64,000 nucleotides of DNA from Escherichia phage AV117. The notes under the pieces were generated by a model, which worked only from the letters and a program-made list of their open reading frames with translations, was not told where the DNA came from and made no database searches. Location: the sequence record OR352947.1; one strand, written 5' to 3'. Shown here in pieces: positions 490 to 60,932 of the stretch (position 1 is the first letter of the stretch; each line of letters begins with the position of its first letter). Both the position numbers and the translations under genes were made by a program.

Positions 490-501
490 AATTTCCTCAG
501 T

Positions 502-517
502 GGGAGCCGAAGCTCCC
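502..517 (-). terminator. UUCG-tetraloop hairpin (GGGAGC-UUCG-GCUCCC) between two minus-strand genes
   Basis: Perfect 6-bp GC-rich stem with UUCG loop on minus-strand RNA. Confidence 0.5.
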
Positions 518-524
518 AGTTAAA

Positions 525-9540: not shown

Positions 9541-9570
9541 ATTGTACCACAATCCTTGTGGCATGTAAAC
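9541..9570 (-). promoter_or_regulatory. early-type promoter-like element (-35 GTTTAC, -10 TACAAT) with CCACAA..TTGTGG inverted repeat
   Basis: gtaaac 9565-9570 upstream of rnlA. Confidence 0.4.
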
Positions 9571-9980
9571 TACTTTTTCTTATGTTGGATATTCCAAGGC
9601 GGGTTGAACTTTTTGATAAAAAGCGGTTCTTCAAGGTCCATTGTTGCGATGGTCATTGAACCAAGTTCATTGGTGACTGAAAGGTCAAAACATTGGCGGG
9701 CCCAGAATTCAACCTTTTTGCCTTGCATTAAGGCATCCAAAATCATAAGTGATTTTCTTGAATCTGAAGTCTGGTCTTTTCGATTTATGGCTGTTCGATA
9801 ATAGTTAATGCGTTTCTTTAAATTCTTGGTTTTACCAATATACACAAGCTCGTCATCTATAGCAATAGCGTATATGACATTTTTCTTATTAGGGACGTCA
9901 ACTGTTTTAATTGTTGCATCTTCTAATAGCTCCAATTCTGTATATTTAATAAAGGAATATTCGGCGGCAATATCTTTCAT
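9570..9980 (-). CDS. denA: endonuclease II (GIY-YIG-like nicking endonuclease for cytosine DNA)
   Basis: 136 aa; GIY-YIG-like segment (VIYAIAIDDELVYIGKTKNLKKRINYY); T4 position next to nrdB. Confidence 0.8.
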   Translation of the reverse strand: MKDIAAEYSFIKYTELELLEDATIKTVDVPNKKNVIYAIAIDDELVYIGKTKNLKKRINYYRTAINRKDQTSDSRKSLMILDALMQGKKVEFWARQCFDLSVTNELGSMTIATMDLEEPLFIKKFNPPWNIQHKKK

Positions 9981-9988
9981 AATAAAGT

Positions 9989-10002
9989 GGGACCGAAGTC
10001 CC
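9989..10002 (-). terminator. UUCG-tetraloop hairpin (GGGAC-UUCG-GUCCC) between nrdB and denA
   Basis: Perfect 5-bp stem with UUCG loop. Confidence 0.5.
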
Positions 10003-10006
10003 GTCC

Positions 10007-11185
10007 TTAGAAATATTTTTTGTATGAATTGATTACATTTTGGTCTACATCATTATCAATTTGTGCGACAAGATAAGAACTGATTTCAACTTCCTGAGGA
10101 GCTGATTGAACTAAATCAGAGTTCAGATATTCACGAATCCAAGGATACGGATGCTTGGTCGGAGCATCAGTGATTGGACATGGCAAACCGCACTGTTTCA
10201 TACGAGACACAGTCAAGTAATCAACAAAAGCACACATACTCTGCGTATTGATACCTGGACATGTACCATCTTTAAAGAGGTGTGCAGCCCATTCCTTCTC
10301 TTGTCTATTTACTTCCATAAAAATGTCAACTGCTTCTTGTTCACATTCTTTAGCAATTTGAACCCACTCATCACCATCAGTACCAGATTGAAGTTGACGG
10401 ATAATGTACTGAGTACCCTTAAGGTGGAGTTGTTCGTCACGAGCAATGAACTTCATAATCTTTGCATTACCTTCCATAATTTCCATATTTTTATGGAAGT
10501 TGAAAGTACATGCAAATGATACGTAAAAACGAATAGCTTCTAAGGCATTGATAACATGCAAACAGAGATAAAGAGACTTCATTAAATCACGCTTAGCAGC
10601 GGCTTCTTGCTTAATAGCACGTTCTAATTGAAGGTCTGCATTAATTGACGCTTTGGCTAGTTCCGTGAATTCTTTCTGGTTTTCCCAATGACGAGTCTTG
10701 ACTAGAACATCATCGTAATATTTACCTATTGATTCAGCTCGTTTCATGATTGCTTCGTCTAATACAATTTCATCAAATACCTTAGATGGGTCTGTATAAA
10801 GATTTCGCATAATATGTGTATACGAACGAGAGTGAATAGTTTCACTGAATGTCCATGTTGCAACCCACGTATCTAATGAAGGGTCAGAAATCAGTGCCAT
10901 AAGTACCGCAGATGGGGCCCTGCCTTGGATAGAATCTAATAATGATTGATACTTAAGATTGTTTGTAAAGATGTCCTGTTGGAACTGAGGAAGCTTATTG
11001 AACTGCGCAGAGTCCAACATCAAGTTTACCTCTTCTGGGCGCCAAAAAAATGATAATTGCTTTTCGGTCAAATCTTCAAAAACTTTATGGCGTTGAATAT
11101 CATAACGCGCAATACCAAGTCCAGAACCAAAGAACATCGGTTCATTCAAAACATCGACTTGTTGTGTGTTAAAAACTGTACTCAT
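10007..11185 (-). CDS. nrdB: ribonucleotide reductase small subunit (class Ia), uninterrupted
   Basis: 392 aa continuous ORF with di-iron/tyrosyl radical protein features; no intron-like interruption. Confidence 0.9.
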   Translation of the reverse strand: MSTVFNTQQVDVLNEPMFFGSGLGIARYDIQRHKVFEDLTEKQLSFFWRPEEVNLMLDSAQFNKLPQFQQDIFTNNLKYQSLLDSIQGRAPSAVLMALISDPSLDTWVATWTFSETIHSRSYTHIMRNLYTDPSKVFDEIVLDEAIMKRAESIGKYYDDVLVKTRHWENQKEFTELAKASINADLQLERAIKQEAAAKRDLMKSLYLCLHVINALEAIRFYVSFACTFNFHKNMEIMEGNAKIMKFIARDEQLHLKGTQYIIRQLQSGTDGDEWVQIAKECEQEAVDIFMEVNRQEKEWAAHLFKDGTCPGINTQSMCAFVDYLTVSRMKQCGLPCPITDAPTKHPYPWIREYLNSDLVQSAPQEVEISSYLVAQIDNDVDQNVINSYKKYF

Positions 11186-16509: not shown

Positions 16510-16527
16510 GGGAGACCGAAGTCTCCC
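16510..16527 (-). terminator. UUCG-tetraloop hairpin terminator after gene 32
   Basis: GGGAGAC-UUCG-GUCUCCC directly after gp32 stop. Confidence 0.65.
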
Positions 16528-24831: not shown

Positions 24832-24849
24832 GGGAGACTTCGGTCTCCC
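24832..24849 (+). terminator. intrinsic terminator: GGGAGAC-UUCG-GUCUCCC followed by U-run
   Basis: Hairpin immediately after gp35 stop followed by ATTTTTG. Confidence 0.7.
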
Positions 24850-24856
24850 ATTTTTG

Positions 24857-24864
24857 TATAAATA
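24857..24864 (+). promoter_or_regulatory. late promoter TATAAATA for gene 36
   Basis: Exact TATAAATA about 25 nt upstream of gp36 ATG. Confidence 0.65.
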
Positions 24865-25559: not shown

Positions 25560-28500
25560 ATGGCTACATTAAAACAGATACAATTTAAAAGAAGCAAAGT
25601 GGCAGGAGTTAATCCTACTGCAGCACAATTAGCCGAAGGCGAATTAGCGATAAACTTAAAAGATCGAACTCTTTTTACTAAAGATGACCTCGGTAATATT
25701 ATTAGCCTAGGCTTTGCTAAGGGCGGGGATATTAACGGTAATGTAACTCAAAATGGAGATTATTTACAGAACGGTGCATATAATCTCAATGGAAACCAGT
25801 TTGTTTATGCAGGAAAGTATATTGAATTCTTGCCAAAAACTGCTGGAAATGGCGCTTGGGCTAACCAACACACAAATAAAGCCCCTATCTTTACAGATTT
25901 GAGTTCAACTACTTCAACTTCTGAATACCACCCTTTGATTAAGCAACGTTATAAAGACGGTACTTTTTCAGTAGGTACATTAGTAAGCGAAGGCTCATTT
26001 AGAGTTCATTATATTGATTCTACAGCTCCAGACAATTCTAAACACTGGGCCTTTAACCGTAATGGTAATTTTATTGTAGATTCTGGTAGTATTGAGGTCC
26101 GCGCAGGTAATATTTCTGCGTCAGGCAATATTAACTCCGCTAATGGTATAGTTTCTGCTCCACAAGTTAATACGAAAACCATTGTTTTAGACACAAAAGC
26201 ATTCGGACAATATGATTCACAATCATTAGTTCAATATGTTTATCCTGGAACAGGTGAAGAAAATGGTATAAACTATCTTCGTAAAGTTCGAGCTAAATCA
26301 GGCGGAACTATTTACCATGAAATCGCTTCAGCTCAAACTGGTAAGAATGATGAAATTTCTTGGTGGACCGGAAACTCACTTACCACTAAATTAATGGGTC
26401 TTCGTAATGATGGCGCAATGGTATTACGTCGTTCACTTGCTATTGGCACAATTACCACTGACGAAAATACTAACAACTACGGTTCTCCTACTCCAATGGG
26501 AGAAAGATATATTGCTTTGGGCGATGCTGCAACCGGTTTAAAATATATTAAGCAAGGTGTTTATGATTTAGTAGGTAATTGGAATTCTGTTGCTTCTATT
26601 ACTCCTGATAGTTTCCGTAGTACTCGTAAAGCATTATTTGGACGTTCAGAAGACCAAGGCGGAACCTGGACAATGCCTGGCACTAATGCCGCTTTCTTGT
26701 CTGTTCAAACACAAGCTGATAATAACAATGCTGGAGACGGCCGGACACATATTGGTTATAACTCCGGTGGAAAAATGTCGCACTATTTCCGTGGTACAGG
26801 TCAGATGAATATCAATACCCAACAAGGTATGGAAATTAACCCGGGTATTTTGAAATTGGTAACCGGTGCAAATAATGTGATGTTTTATGCTGATGGCGGT
26901 ATTACATCCACTAAGCAGCTTTCAATATATAATGGTGTATATTTAGCAGCTAATAATTCTACTGCTGGGCTAACATTCGCTCCAACTACTACAATTGATG
27001 GCACTAAGCAAATTTTGTGGGAAGGTGGTAAGCGCGCTGGACAGAATAAAAGCTATGTAACTGTTAAAGCGTGGGGTAATTCATTTAACGCATCTGGCGA
27101 TCGTAATCGCGAAACAGTTTTTGAAGTAGCTGACGGACAAGGTTATTATTTTTATTCCCAACGCGTAGCCCCAAGCGGCTCCGAAACTACTGGTCCTGTT
27201 GTAACCCAGTTTGCTGGAGCTGTTAATGCTAGAGGAAGTATTATTACTGACGGAAGTTTTAAAGTTAATGGATTAAGCACTTTAGTCGGTAATGTTACAA
27301 TGAGCAATGGTCTTAATTTAACTGGGGGTTCTTCTATTACAGGCCAAGTAAAAATTGGTGGAACTGCCGATGCATTAAGAATTTGGAATGCTGAATATGG
27401 TGCAATTTTCCGTCGTTCTGAAGATAAGCTTTATATTATTCCAACTCCGCAGAATGCTGGTGAAACAGGCGGTATTTCTAATTTACGTCCATTCTATATT
27501 GCATTAAGTAATGGTAAAGTCAGCATGGATCATGATGTTGATATCGGTGGTGGAAGATTTAAAGTAGAAACTAGTGGAACAACATCGGGGCAACGTATTA
27601 CAGTTAATACTGCCTCCGATGCTATTAGAATAAATGCTCCAACACAAGAGTCTTCTAACTTCATCCAAGGACGTAAAGCAGATGTCACAAAATGGTATTT
27701 GGGTATTGGCGATGGCGGCAACATCGTTCGTATGCACAGTTACACCTATTCCCATGGTATTGCATTAAACTCTGATACGGTTGATATAGCTAAACCTCTT
27801 AGAATAGGTTCAACCCAGATTGGAACCGATGGTAACATCACAGGTGGTTCTAGTAATTTTGCTAACCTGAACACAACTTTAGAACGTAGAGTTAAGGTCG
27901 GAACTTGGTCCGGTAGTTCAACTGCAGGATGGTATAAATTTGCTACTGTAACTATGCCACAATCAGTTTCTACCGTCCAATTTAAGATTATAGGTGGTAA
28001 TGGATATAATGCCAATTCACCAGAACAGGCTACAATTACTGAAGTAGTTCTTCGTACCAGTAATAACAATCCTAAAGGTATTAACGCCACTTTATGGGGG
28101 CGCACGGGTAATGGATTTACTAATATAGCAACAATTAATACCTCCGGTGATGATTATGACGTTTATCTGTATGCTGGGACTTATGCAGACAAACTTATAG
28201 TTGAATATGACGCCACAGAAAATACACGTTATATTTCGGTAATTGGTCTTAATGGTGGATATCAAACACCAGTAACAGAATTACCCGCTGGTCATCTCGT
28301 TGGTCAAGTGTATATGATGTATTCTGATGCTCAAATACCTTATCCGGTCGGTGCTCCGATTCCATGGCCAAGTGATTCAGTTCCTGACGGGTTTGCTTTA
28401 ATGGAAGGTCAGACTTTTGATAAGTCTGCATATCCTAAGCTCGCTATCGCATATCCTACAGGTACTATTCCTGATATGCGTGGACAAACTATCAAGGGTA

Positions 28501-29042
28501 AACCAAGTGGTCGTGCTGTTTTGAGCGCTGAGGCAGATGGTGTTAAGGCTCATAGTCATAGTGCAAGTGCATCAAGCACAGATTTAGGTACTAAAACCAC
28601 ATCAAGCTTTGACTATGGTACTAAGACGACAAGTAGTTTCGACTATGGTACTAAGACCAGTAATAATACTGGTGCTCATACGCATAGTTTGAGCGGTTCC
28701 ACAAACACCGCCGGTGCGCACAGCCACACAAGCGCTCTTTATGCGGGCGATAGAAACTCTCCTGGTGGTAGTTCTGCAAGAGGATCCGCCGGTGGTGGTA
28801 ATACGCTTGGAACTTCTTCTTCTGGGGCACATTCGCACTCTATATCTGGTACTGCTGCAAGCGCAGGCGCTCACGCACATACTGTTGGTATTGGTGCTCA
28901 TACCCATACAGTTGGTATTGGTGCTCACACCCATTCAGTAGCAATTGGTTCACATGGGCATACAATAACTGTAAATAGTACAGGTAATACAGAAAACACG
29001 GTTAAAAACATTGCTTTTAACTATATCGTTCGTTTAGCATAA
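25560..29042 (+). CDS. 37: long tail fiber distal subunit / receptor-recognising protein gp37
   Basis: 1160 aa; C-terminus ...[11 protein letters not shown] as in T4; His-x-His repeats near tip. Confidence 0.95.
28587..28657 (+). repeat. in-frame 30-nt tandem repeat (about 2.3 copies) encoding [10 protein letters not shown] within gp37 tip
   Basis: Direct nucleotide repeat read in sequence. Confidence 0.8.
28868..28960 (+). repeat. in-frame 27-nt tandem repeat (about 3.4 copies) encoding AHTHTVGIG His-x-His units within gp37 tip
   Basis: Direct nucleotide repeat read in sequence. Confidence 0.8.
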
Positions 29043-29047
29043 GGAGA

Positions 29048-29061
29048 GGGGCTTCGGCCCC
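29048..29061 (+). promoter_or_regulatory. UUCG hairpin (GGGGC-UUCG-GCCCC) between Shine-Dalgarno (AAGGAG) and AUG of gene 38
   Basis: SD at 29041-29046, hairpin, ATG at 29070. Confidence 0.6.
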
Positions 29062-29069
29062 TTCTAAAT

Positions 29070-29621
29070 ATGAAAATATATCATTATTATTTTGACACTA
29101 AAGAATTTTACAAAGAAGAAAATTACAAACTGGTTAAAGGTCTTGGTCTTCCCGCTCATTCAACAATTAAAAAACCTTTAGACCCTAAAGAAGGCTATGC
29201 TGTTGTATTTGATGAACGCGAACAAGAATGGGTATATGTTGAAGACCATCGTGGAAAAACAGTATGGACATATGATAAGCAAAAAATTGTTATTGACACT
29301 CCAGGTGCTCTTCAAAATGTTACTACAGAAGAACCTGGTGAATTTGACATTTGGACTGGCGACGGGTGGAAGGAAGATGAAGCATATAAACGCGTAGTTC
29401 AACGTGATAAGAAAATTCATGAACTCTATAAATTATTCAGTGTTTTAAGTTCTCTTATTGACGCAGAGGTTGCTAATAGAGAAGAAAAACGAAAATTTAA
29501 AGAGCTCAAAAAATTCTTTGCCCTTTTAGAAAAACATGAACATCTTGGCGGTGAATTCCCTAAATTCCCTGACCTTGAAAACAAATCTATTATCAAAGCG
29601 ATTATAAATATCTTTAAGTAA
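29070..29621 (+). CDS. 38: gp38 tail fiber assembly chaperone (T4-type)
   Basis: 183 aa; N-terminus MKIYHYYFDTKEFYKEENYK matches T4-type gp38. Confidence 0.9.
   Translation: MKIYHYYFDTKEFYKEENYKLVKGLGLPAHSTIKKPLDPKEGYAVVFDEREQEWVYVEDHRGKTVWTYDKQKIVIDTPGALQNVTTEEPGEFDIWTGDGWKEDEAYKRVVQRDKKIHELYKLFSVLSSLIDAEVANREEKRKFKELKKFFALLEKHEHLGGEFPKFPDLENKSIIKAIINIFK
29603..29610 (+). promoter_or_regulatory. late promoter TATAAATA for holin gene t
   Basis: TATAAATA about 20 nt upstream of t ATG, inside 3' end of gene 38. Confidence 0.5.
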
Positions 29622-29630
29622 GGAGGTATT

Positions 29631-30290
29631 ATGGCAACACCAAAAGTATCATTTTCACTTAGTGATATTCTATTTGGGTTGCTAGATCGTATTTTCAAAG
29701 ATAACGCTACTGGAAAGGTTTTAATGTCCCGAGTAGCGGTAATTGTTCTTTTGTTCCTAATGGCACTAATATGGTACAAAGGAAGTATTTTGCTGGATTA
29801 TTACGTAAGAGCTAAGTATGATACTTATACTGAAATAATCCAAAAAGAACGAGCTTTACGTTTTGAATCTGCGGCTCTAGAACAACTGCAAATAGTTCAT
29901 ATCTCATCTGGTGCAGATTTTAGTGCTGTGTATTCTTTCAGACCTAAAAACTTAAATTATTTTGTCGACCTTATAGCTTATGAAGGCAAACTACCTAGCA
30001 CAATTTCTGAAAAGTCCCTTGGCGGATTCCCGGTGGATAAAACGGCTAATGAATATATAATTCATTTAAGTGGCCGTCATTTCTCATCTAAATCAGAATT
30101 TGCATTTTTGCCTACAAAATCTAAGACTGCCGAACTTTCTTATATGTATAGTTGTCCATACTTTAATTTGGATAACATCTATGCCGGAACTGTGACGATG
30201 TATTGGTATAAGGGGAGTAATATACTTGAGGAAGACCGCTTAGCGGCTATATGCAACCAAGCGGTCCGAATACTAGGAAGGGCTAAATAA
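29631..30290 (+). CDS. t: holin T
   Basis: 219 aa; single N-terminal TM segment and large periplasmic domain; matches T4 T. Confidence 0.9.
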   Translation: MATPKVSFSLSDILFGLLDRIFKDNATGKVLMSRVAVIVLLFLMALIWYKGSILLDYYVRAKYDTYTEIIQKERALRFESAALEQLQIVHISSGADFSAVYSFRPKNLNYFVDLIAYEGKLPSTISEKSLGGFPVDKTANEYIIHLSGRHFSSKSEFAFLPTKSKTAELSYMYSCPYFNLDNIYAGTVTMYWYKGSNILEEDRLAAICNQAVRILGRAK

Positions 30291-33459: not shown

Positions 33460-33484
33460 TGTTTTGTGAGAAAAATGCACAAAA

Positions 33485-33500
33485 GGGAGCCGAAGCTCCC
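33485..33500 (-). terminator. UUCG-tetraloop hairpin (GGGAGC-UUCG-GCUCCC) downstream of gene 52
   Basis: Perfect 6-bp stem. Confidence 0.5.
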
Positions 33501-33576
33501 TAATCATGTTTGTCCAACCAATACAGCCAAATCACTAGTGCAGCTATTGCACCGAGAAATCCTAAGGCTAGGGCAC

Positions 33577-34906: not shown

Positions 34907-35047
34907 TCACCATATTAATGAACGAATAACCATTATAACATCTGAAATGAAAAGCACTACTTGGACTAGCCCAAACATCACACCGTAGTACAGAACCGTA
35001 AGCAACAACAAGAGCCCGAAGGCTCCTGCTAAGATTTTCTTAATCAT
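34907..35047 (-). CDS. small hydrophobic membrane protein, 46 aa (MIKKILAGAFGLLLLLTVLYYGV...)
   Basis: Manual translation; below ORF-track cut-off; hand-counted coordinates. Confidence 0.4.
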   Translation of the reverse strand: MIKKILAGAFGLLLLLTVLYYGVMFGLVQVVLFISDVIMVIRSLIW

Positions 35048-37330: not shown

Positions 37331-37346
37331 GGGGACCGAAGTCCCC
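37331..37346 (-). terminator. UUCG-tetraloop hairpin (GGGGAC-UUCG-GUCCCC) after rIIB
   Basis: Perfect 6-bp stem 6 nt after rIIB stop. Confidence 0.55.
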
Positions 37347-41954: not shown

Positions 41955-41972
41955 AAGCTCCCGAAGGAGCTT
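41955..41972 (-). terminator. UUCG-tetraloop hairpin (AAGCUCC-UUCG-GGAGCUU) overlapping gene 39 stop
   Basis: Perfect 7-bp stem. Confidence 0.5.
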
Positions 41973-43788: not shown

Positions 43789-43839
43789 GTTGTCTCCTCG
43801 TTATGAAGGTATTCTATCATCCTAAATCTAAAGCAAAAA

Positions 43840-43851
43840 GGGCCGAAGCCC
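43840..43851 (-). terminator. UUCG-tetraloop hairpin (GGGC-UUCG-GCCC) immediately after upstream gene stop
   Basis: 4-bp GC stem with UUCG loop. Confidence 0.4.
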
Positions 43852-44277
43852 TTATTTAAATTTAATTTTCTGAAGTGCATCAATTGCAGCCAAACGCCCT
43901 TGTTCACTTTTAACTGTAATAACCACATCACCTGATACGATCACCGAACCATCAACAAATTCTACAGAGCCTTTTTTGAAATCGACAGCTGTATCTGGTT
44001 CCGGAACTTCTTCAAAGAATTTAAATTCTGCACCATAAAGCAGAATATCACCTTGCATACTATGAATAGTTCGGCCATAATCGCCTACGGCTTCTACGGC
44101 AATAACCGAAACGCCGTAACCAATCATCTCTTCCACAATAAAATCTTTGGACAATAAAGTAGTATGCAGATTAGTATTAAGACGTTTACCAGTCGTATTA
44201 AGAATTCTCAAGAAATTATCTTCTTGACCTTTGATAATACGATATTTCTTACCAACTTCAAAACCTTTAAAAGCCAT
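43852..44277 (-). CDS. hypothetical protein (141 aa)
   Basis: ORF track. Confidence 0.55.
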   Translation of the reverse strand: MAFKGFEVGKKYRIIKGQEDNFLRILNTTGKRLNTNLHTTLLSKDFIVEEMIGYGVSVIAVEAVGDYGRTIHSMQGDILLYGAEFKFFEEVPEPDTAVDFKKGSVEFVDGSVIVSGDVVITVKSEQGRLAAIDALQKIKFK

Positions 44278-53224: not shown

Positions 53225-53267
53225 AGTTTTTAGTGGTTGTAAACTGTAGGTAGAAACAAAAAAAAAA

Positions 53268-53285
53268 GGAATCCCGAAGGATTCC
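53268..53285 (-). terminator. intrinsic terminator after soc: GGAAUCC-UUCG-GGAUUCC followed by U9
   Basis: Hairpin plus poly-A on + strand (poly-U on transcript). Confidence 0.75.
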
Positions 53286-53294
53286 TTAAATTAT

Positions 53295-59088: not shown

Positions 59089-59094
59089 CCCGAA

Positions 59095-59112
59095 AGGAGA
59101 CCGAAGTCTCCT
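59095..59112 (-). terminator. UUCG-tetraloop hairpin terminator after gene 41 (AGGAGAC-UUCG-GUCUCCU)
   Basis: 7-bp stem; T-run follows on + strand side. Confidence 0.55.
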
Positions 59113-59117
59113 TTTTG

Positions 59118-60569: not shown

Positions 60570-60932
60570 TTAAAAGAATTTAAATTTTTTCTTGGTCCGT
60601 TCATTAAAAGCTTGTTGTACTTGCATTGTAACACATTTTTCAACATGCGGTGCAAGTTCTGCTTTTCTGTCCTGGTCAAGAACTGCAAAGTCCATTACGA
60701 TTTTACCATCAACCCAGTCTAGTTTTGTAATATAGACTATATGATGAGAACCATCTTCAAGTGTAATCAGAATCTCTTGAATGACATTTTCCATTGCTGA
60801 ACGGATAATTTTAAGAGATTCATTAAACACTCGTTCTTTGCGAATGTCTTCCCCTTCCGAAGAAGGGGATTCATCAACGATTTCTAGATTTAAATCATCG
60901 AGATTATTCATCGAAATCTTCCATTTCGTCAA
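60570..60932 (-). CDS. 40: gp40-like head assembly accessory protein
   Basis: 120 aa; synteny between uvsX and 41. Confidence 0.6.
   Translation of the reverse strand: MTKWKISMNNLDDLNLEIVDESPSSEGEDIRKERVFNESLKIIRSAMENVIQEILITLEDGSHHIVYITKLDWVDGKIVMDFAVLDQDRKAELAPHVEKCVTMQVQQAFNERTKKKFKFF

Follow-up and report, generated by a model that had tools for sequence, protein, structure and literature searches.

A C(UUCG)G hairpin between the Shine-Dalgarno sequence and start codon of gene 38 in Escherichia phage AV117: a probable split ribosome binding site of the T4 type

The junction between genes 37 and 38 of Escherichia phage AV117 carries the only Shine-Dalgarno (SD) sequence available to gene 38 on the stop codon of gene 37, and a hairpin closed by a C(UUCG)G tetraloop lies between this SD and the gene 38 start codon. 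We consider it probable that the junction forms a split, or non-contiguous, ribosome binding site (RBS) of the T4 type, in which a generic hairpin would be looped out on the 30S subunit. Here we describe the anatomy and stability of this element, its orthology with T4, and its conservation and covariation among relatives, as found in and around a stretch of 64,000 nucleotides of sequence record OR352947.1 (hereafter the window). Judged by its sequence it has its orthologue in a textbook feature of T4, and is therefore already known. What we add is small: the occurrence of the hairpin in phages that lack the split arrangement, and a further case of the arrangement at the nrdB-denA junction.

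The source phage is T4-like (Tevenvirinae), and 208 phage records match the stretch at the megablast level. The features of the junction are as follows.

25560-29042, plus strand: gene 37, long tail fibre distal subunit, 1160 aa (from the ORF list; homologues are annotated gp37).
29040-29042, plus strand: stop codon TAA of gene 37.
29040-29046, plus strand: SD sequence UAAGGAG, with its core AAGGAG at 29041-29046, overlapping the gene 37 stop codon (from the sequence).
29047-29062, plus strand: hairpin made of GGGGC (29048-52), a UUCG loop (29053-56) and GCCCC (29057-61), with a closing A29047-U29062 pair (from the folds).
29063-29069, plus strand: single-stranded spacer UCUAAAU (by direct count).
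29070-29621, plus strand: gene 38, T4-type tail fibre assembly chaperone, 183 aa, with its AUG at 29070-72 (from the ORF list and Pfam).
29631-30290: holin gene t, directly after gene 38.

On the plus strand the junction reads ...GCA TAA GGAG A GGGGC TTCG GCCCC TTCTAAAT ATG AAA.... All 7 nt of UAAGGAG are complementary to the 3' end of 16S rRNA, with a predicted duplex energy of -9.3 kcal/mol, and no alternative SD for gene 38 is present when a match of at least 4 nt is sought 3-13 nt upstream of the AUG. The gene 37 stop is in frame with gene 38, and between that stop and 29070 there is no other in-frame ATG, GTG or TTG from which gene 38 could start. A preliminary description of this DNA had placed the hairpin GGGGC-UUCG-GCCCC at 29048-29061 between SD and AUG, which is exact to the base. 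It had also located AAGGAG correctly at 29041-29046, but the distance of 24 nt that it gave from SD to AUG is the difference between the two positions, the number of intervening nucleotides being 23, well over the roughly 15 nt at which an SD still functions. Its expectation that folding would bring the SD to normal spacing agrees with our count, as 6-7 nt are left between SD and AUG once the hairpin is folded, within the canonical range of about 5-9 nt (6 after a maximal 7-bp stem, which takes in G29046-U29063 as an optional further pair). The downstream protein, gp38, has a Pfam Caudo_TAP match and is 95-99% identical to tail fibre assembly proteins of F2, ZQ3 and the Mosigvirus type, and gp37 carries a Collar domain and phage fibre repeats within its C-terminal 400 aa.

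In the mechanism that we propose, the strong SD on the gene 37 stop codon would act as the only SD of gene 38 from 23 nt 5' of the AUG, and the 16 nt between them (29047-29062) would form a C(UUCG)G tetraloop hairpin of great stability. With that hairpin looped out on the 30S subunit, 6-7 single-stranded nt would be left from SD to AUG, a normal spacing, and initiation would take place on a late transcript that spans genes 36, 37 and 38. Additionally, the hairpin would probably protect or weakly terminate the mRNA of gene 37. The looping-out on the ribosome and the stimulation of translation would be as the T4 literature has it, and the part played at the 3' end would be that suggested by homologues of the hairpin.

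The predicted stability of the hairpin is high at the scale of the hairpin itself. By itself it has a folding energy of -12.5 kcal/mol, and a 38-nt segment around it reaches -15.4 kcal/mol (z = -3.09), a value that one shuffle in 200 equalled. With 80 nt of context the z-score of the whole segment is only -1.34; with 150 nt, the probability of the five core pairs is 0.99-1.0. An Rfam scan of 28800-29300 at E values up to 10 returned three chance-level matches (E 4.5-9.4), none of them over the hairpin.

The 37-38 junction of the T4 reference (NC_000866), TAAGGAGAGGGGCTTCGGCCCTTCTAAATATG, is one base apart from that of the source phage. The T4 gene 38 site has the same succession of an SD overlapping the gene 37 TAA, a C(UUCG)G hairpin, a spacer and the start codon; it differs in the 3' arm of the stem, which is GCCC in T4 and GCCCC here. 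Because of this one extra C, the present hairpin has five G-C pairs where T4 has four and a G-U, and the spacing is 23 nt where that of T4 is 22. A further difference lies downstream, where gp38 is only 69% identical to T4 gp38. In the T4 gene 38 mRNA, structure is reported to cut the 22-nt spacing to about 5 nt (PMC3014915), and the same source cites Nivinskas 1999 for the finding that destabilising mutations reduce initiation. PMC7297116 gives Gold 1988 as the source for gene 38 and Nivinskas 1999 for gene 25; there, the positive effect of the gene 38 hairpin 'was suggested', and sites of this kind are called 'noncontiguous or split'. The mutational tests of a split RBS cited in these two papers concern gene 25.

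Gene 25 of T4 (the 26-25 junction) is an analogue: a stable hairpin between SD and AUG likewise restores functional spacing, and close T-even phages share the arrangement, although the locus and the sequence are different and the spacing is reduced from 27 to 11 nt (PMC3014915). Mutants, reporter fusions and DMS probing are reported to have been used to test the gene 25 site (Nivinskas et al. 1999; Malys and Nivinskas 2009); the gene 38 element described here is a predicted one. Gene 25 itself is absent from the window. The earlier proposal of a split RBS of the T4 gene 38 type gains support from the orthologous junction that differs by one base, from an invariant SD, from compensatory changes in the stem and from the normal residual spacing. 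There is little scientific gain over the T4 textbook case. The description has value for annotation, where automatic pipelines misplace the gene 38 RBS or start codon, and for the engineering of host-range cassettes, where gene 37/38 swaps made without the SD-hairpin-AUG unit could alter expression of the chaperone.

The comparison with relatives covered 15 distinct T-even-type junctions, from four Tevenvirinae genera (Tequatrovirus, Mosigvirus, Gaprivervirus and Dhakavirus), an IMG/VR contig and metagenomes. AAGGAG follows the T of the stop codon directly in every one of them. The loop takes the forms UUCG, UUCU, UUAU, UUAG and GUUA, and the fourth stem pair is G-C in 7 cases, A-U in 4-5 and C-G in 1-2, with a G-U intermediate in phage Mizar. 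Standard pairs occupy 98.8% of cells across the 14 distinct hairpin segments, and the covariation score and percentage paired were reached by none of 500 shuffles. Sliding the stem partners against each other lowers pairing to 25-76%, and the RNAalifold consensus is exactly the 5-bp core. Furthermore, the linear spacing from SD to AUG in the relatives is 22-27 nt, of which 4-6 nt are left after the maximal stem. These alignments indicate that the element is not due to chance and that it is conserved with covariation in relatives; the covariation evidence is real but modest, coming from a single covarying pair in related phages. A search of IMG/VR with gp38 for related loci gave one locus only. 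Scanning for a pattern of the gp38 N-terminus returned 3 viral and 27 metagenome matches, mostly to unrelated ORFs, and the real junctions among them are only those labelled L145-147, L157, L159, L165, L166 and L169. As deposited, one record places the RBS within the hairpin, and another begins gp38 at an AUG that arises in the loop.

The transcript that carries gene 38 probably spans genes 36, 37 and 38, given the following arrangement of promoter-like and terminator-like sites.

24832-24849: terminator-like hairpin preceding the gene 36 late-promoter motif.
24857-24864, plus strand: late-promoter motif TATAAATA before gene 36, the nearest upstream of gene 38 (pattern search).
29603-29610, plus strand: late-promoter motif TATAAATA within the end of gene 38, before the holin gene t (pattern search).

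The T4 late-promoter consensus is established, and it is from this consensus that promoter use is deduced here. Between 24857 and 29603 the pattern search found no TATAAATA motif. As no late-promoter motif belongs to gene 38 itself, the majority of transcripts have to pass the hairpin, which therefore cannot terminate efficiently. It does have the GC-rich stem-loop of an intrinsic terminator (five G-C pairs plus an A-U and a G-U, with a tetraloop). Its tail, TTCTAAAT, falls short of a U tract of at least 5 T in the 8 nt right after the stem, and a terminator scan of the window made no call at 29048-61. The version of the hairpin in Mosigvirus NBG1 is likewise uncalled by the terminator scan. 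Mosigvirus versions carry CCCTTTTTAT, and several depositors annotate a 'terminator' at them; one Mosigvirus version reads UUUUUAUAAU, as against the tail UUCUAAAU of the source phage.

The preliminary description had further held it probable that the same hairpin ends gene 37 translation and transcript structure. The former holds only loosely, as translation stops at the TAA upstream of the hairpin. The latter is suggested by a terminator in Yersinia phages, described below, and has against it the lack of a call in the terminator scan of the window. By analogy with these homologues, a leaky terminator or a 3'-protective role is plausible. We also considered a function of the element on the minus strand and rejected it; there is no terminator-like call on that strand and no minus-strand gene end nearby.

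The hairpin is also found in phages where it does not separate an SD from a start codon, and fibre-chaperone junctions exist that do without it.

Karamvirus CkP1: TAATTTA-GGGCC-TTCG-GGCCC-TT-GGAG-AAAAT-ATG, with the SD 3' of the hairpin and normally spaced.
L146, a 170-kb IMG/VR contig: TAATAGATT-GGGGC-TTCG-GCCCC-TCT-GAGGA-AACT-ATG, with the SD 3' of the hairpin and normally spaced.
50-kb Yersinia phages X1 and YenM_22: TAATCAAA-GGGGC-TTCG-GCCCC-TTTATTTTTTTAT, lacking both an SD and a chaperone gene.
Lambdoid and other phages: TAATG stop/start overlap without a hairpin, at nearly all of 121 sampled junctions, and in lambda itself.

In the Yersinia phages the homologous fibre gene ends ...NYIVRLA*, and BLAST homology stops at the hairpin. 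The hairpin is there called as a terminator, with a U7 tract in its tail ATTTTTTTAT, and a promoter-like site comes next. The lambdoid stf-tfa junctions share the homologous fibre C-terminus ...NYIVRLA* and a Caudo_TAP chaperone that begins at the end of the fibre gene, but their stop and start codons overlap and they have neither hairpin nor spacer. When further Karamvirus-type junctions were sought by tblastn with CkP1 gp38, this protein proved to be a singleton in the phage collection. As the hairpin is kept in phages that have a downstream SD, it is not maintained solely to shorten the distance from SD to AUG. Hairpins of this type are abundant in the window, where CTTCGG occurs 38 times against 15.8 expected; 14 of these occurrences form C(UUCG)G hairpins with a stem of 5 pairs or more, against 0.28 expected in random sequence, and most of the 14 lie just 3' of stop codons, ahead of T runs. 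Intercistronic C(UUCG)G hairpins and intrinsic terminators of T-even phages were reportedly described by Tuerk et al. in 1988. The gene 38 hairpin resembles these in its GC-rich stem, its C(UUCG)G closure and its position immediately past a stop codon, and differs from the terminators in that its U tract is broken (UUCUAAAU) and that it sits within an RBS. The hairpin is probably a generic element at gene 3' ends that has been accommodated by the gene 38 RBS. Taken across these phages, it appears to travel with the 3' end of the fibre gene, the T-even genera having the SD on its upstream side, and it would be older and more general than the split arrangement.

One alternative takes the hairpin as a 3'-end element of gene 37, acting as a leaky terminator and/or a barrier to 3'-5' exonucleases, so that gp37 would be high and gp38 low, with the distant SD merely tolerated and nothing gained for initiation. 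The identical stem-loop past the Yersinia fibre gene, where SD and chaperone are both missing and homology ends, speaks for such a role, as do the retention of the hairpin in CkP1 and L146 despite their downstream SD, the position of most C(UUCG)G hairpins of the window, and the Mosigvirus tails with their depositor annotations. However, the tails of the source phage and of NBG1 escape the terminator scan, gene 38 depends on read-through, and an invariant SD that abuts the hairpin at a normal residual spacing is left unexplained, so that we regard this alternative as quite unlikely. Translational coupling as the main route has some claim to be considered and is compatible with a split RBS: ribosomes ending at the gene 37 TAA would be held by the SD and would re-initiate 27 nt downstream, with the hairpin only shortening the path. 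The TAATG overlap at lambdoid and other junctions is a classic coupling layout, and the position of the SD on the stop codon, besides being invariant in T-even junctions, recurs at nrdB-denA. Against this, a 7-nt SD with so favourable a predicted duplex should draw free 30S subunits unaided, and the SD lies away from the stop codon in CkP1 and L146; we therefore hold coupling as the main route to be rather unlikely.

The split RBS that we favour must also be set against the thermodynamic prediction. In the lowest-energy folds the stem reaches into the SD, with A29045-G29046-A29047 paired to U29063-C29064-U29065, and the CAUA at the end of gene 37 pairs with UAUG. The AUG is predicted to be unpaired with a probability of only 0.09-0.17, and most SD bases with one of 0.22-0.59; as modelled the gene 38 RBS is not open, which counts against the split-RBS reading. 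These values favour an inhibitory structure, in which the extended stem and the CAUA:UAUG helix would hide SD and AUG and keep the chaperone low, and in Mosigvirus-type junctions a U run could pair with GGAGAA to similar effect. We nevertheless consider an inhibitory role improbable, because the outer A-U and G-U pairs are weaker than the SD:anti-SD duplex and are missing from the RNAalifold consensus, because the SP18, TH58, ESCO47 and PhiZZ30 junctions lack an intact CAUA:UAUG helix, and because the SD becomes less accessible when the core stem is disrupted in silico. The last effect is predicted for disruption of either arm, and a compensatory double change brings back the wild-type pattern. 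The GGAG within the SD was also considered as a target of the RegB endoribonuclease and rejected: late transcripts are reportedly resistant, and the RegB consensus GGAGRAYARAA, with its A-rich single-stranded 3' side, is a misfit to GGAGAGGGGCU, which lies inside the stem.

The architecture of the 37-38 junction is met again in the window between nrdB and denA, and in other phages the same junction has the following forms.

10009-9978, minus strand: nrdB-denA junction with the same architecture as 37-38.
T4 and PST, nrdB-denA junction: TAAGGAG-T-GGGCC-GCAA-GGCCC-ATTTTATT-ATG.
Klebsiella phage KPV15, nrdB-denA hairpin: GGGGC-TTCG-GCCCC.
Serratia phage X20, nrdB-denA hairpin: GGGAGAC-TTCG-GTCTCCC.

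In the source phage, reading along the minus strand, the nrdB TAA (10009-10007) overlaps UAAGGA, and GGGAC-UUCG-GUCCC (10002-9989), ACUUUAUU and the AUG at 9980 follow in turn. The arrangement is kept, with stem covariation and changes of loop, from Tequatrovirus to Jiaodavirus and Winklervirus, and we found no description of the nrdB-denA junction in the searchable literature. It is conceivable, and we put it forward only tentatively, that the gene 38 site is one case of a recurrent T-even design, made of an SD on the stop codon, a tetraloop hairpin, about 6-9 U-rich nt and an AUG. Three effects would then come from the same mobile 3'-end hairpin: protection or partial termination of the mRNA upstream, insulation of the cistrons, and control over the amount of a low-abundance downstream protein through structure-dependent initiation or re-initiation. 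The split RBS would have arisen secondarily, by accommodating a fibre-gene terminator that was already there, having been gained when host-range modules were exchanged horizontally. The comparative points, namely an SD on either side of the hairpin, the Yersinia terminator and the nrdB-denA junction, offer a cleaner and testable evolutionary story, which would show how a stable structure becomes tolerated within an RBS.

The pattern by itself is weak evidence, because a generic search of the window for an SD, a hairpin and any start codon showed no enrichment (5 observed against 3.65 +/- 1.9 in random sequence). The weight rests instead on a real ORF, on the absence of any other SD and on conservation. 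By a crude test, an SD at normal distance is missing in 14 of about 70 putative genes in the window, and among those 14 gene 38 and denA alone combine a strong far-upstream SD with a GC-rich hairpin.

The architecture of the gene 38 site, where a hairpin separates the SD from the AUG, is the same as that of a second junction in the window, between nrdB and denA (window 10009-9978, minus strand), at which the linear spacing is 23 nt.

Elements of the nrdB-denA junction, minus strand
10009-9978: junction, with the nrdB stop TAA overlapped by UAAGGA
10002-9989: hairpin GGGAC-UUCG-GUCCC
directly after the hairpin, before the denA AUG: ACUUUAUU
9980: denA AUG

Sequence comparison shows that this junction is kept in other phages with covariation of both stem and loop, the hairpin being GGGCC-GCAA-GGCCC in T4 and PST, GGGGC-TTCG-GCCCC in Klebsiella phage KPV15, and GGGAGAC-TTCG-GTCTCCC in Serratia phage X20. 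In the searchable literature, we found no paper that describes the nrdB-denA junction as a split RBS. Some records label it a terminator.

The whole window contains 38 copies of CTTCGG, where 15.8 are expected, and 14 of them lie inside hairpins whose stems have 5 or more pairs, compared with 0.28 in random sequence; this is the preference for C(UUCG)G hairpins already known from T-even phages. The majority of the 14 are located just 3' of stop codons and are followed by T runs.

C(UUCG)G hairpins in the window
501-518
1442-1461
9989-10002, nrdB-denA junction
16510-16527
24832-24849, gene 35-36 junction
29046-29063, gene 37-38 junction
33484-33501
35006-35031
37331-37346
41955-41972
43838-43853
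53266-53287
59093-59114
60850-60869

At 518-487 (minus strand), the hairpin GGGAGC-TTCG-GCTCCC, which holds a GGAG within its stem, immediately precedes the ordinary SD GAGGA and the ATG (489) of a 163-aa ORF; the resulting order of hairpin and then SD is that of the 37-38 junction of the Karamvirus CkP1 type. The gene 35-36 junction (24832-24864) carries a terminator-like hairpin, GGGAGAC-TTCG-GTCTCCC followed by ATTTTTGT, and immediately 3' of these, before gene 36, is the late-promoter motif TATAAATA (24857).

By sequence comparison of 25560-29621 and 9570-11185, the AV117 genome is a mosaic. Its gp37 has 1160 aa, whereas the coordinates of T4 gene 37 correspond to 1026 aa; its gp38 shares 69% identity with T4 gp38 but 95-99% with the F2 and Mosigvirus-type proteins. 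Several phages (vB_EQ1, ST2, LH01) match the nrdB-denA stretch at 100% identity and Mosigvirus mar005P1 matches it at 99.5%, but T4 at only about 76%. The unrelated, 50-kb Yersinia phages vB_Yen_X1 and vB_YenM_22 (L004, L005) have a fibre gene of which the final ~50 nt, together with the hairpin (locus positions about 401-480), are 85-87% identical to the window. The hairpin itself, GGGGC-TTCG-GCCCC, is identical, and the homology stops there. This match, up to and including the hairpin, suggests that a fibre-tip module with its terminator was exchanged horizontally.

Automatic annotation mishandles the gene 37-38 junction, as two records show. In E. coli O157 typing phage 6 (L018, locus 221-241) a G comes straight after the UUAU loop, and an in-frame AUG thereby arises within the loop of the hairpin; this AUG, 9 nt past the SD, is the gp38 start in its record. 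For phage Mizar (L020, locus 222-224), the RBS is annotated inside the hairpin.
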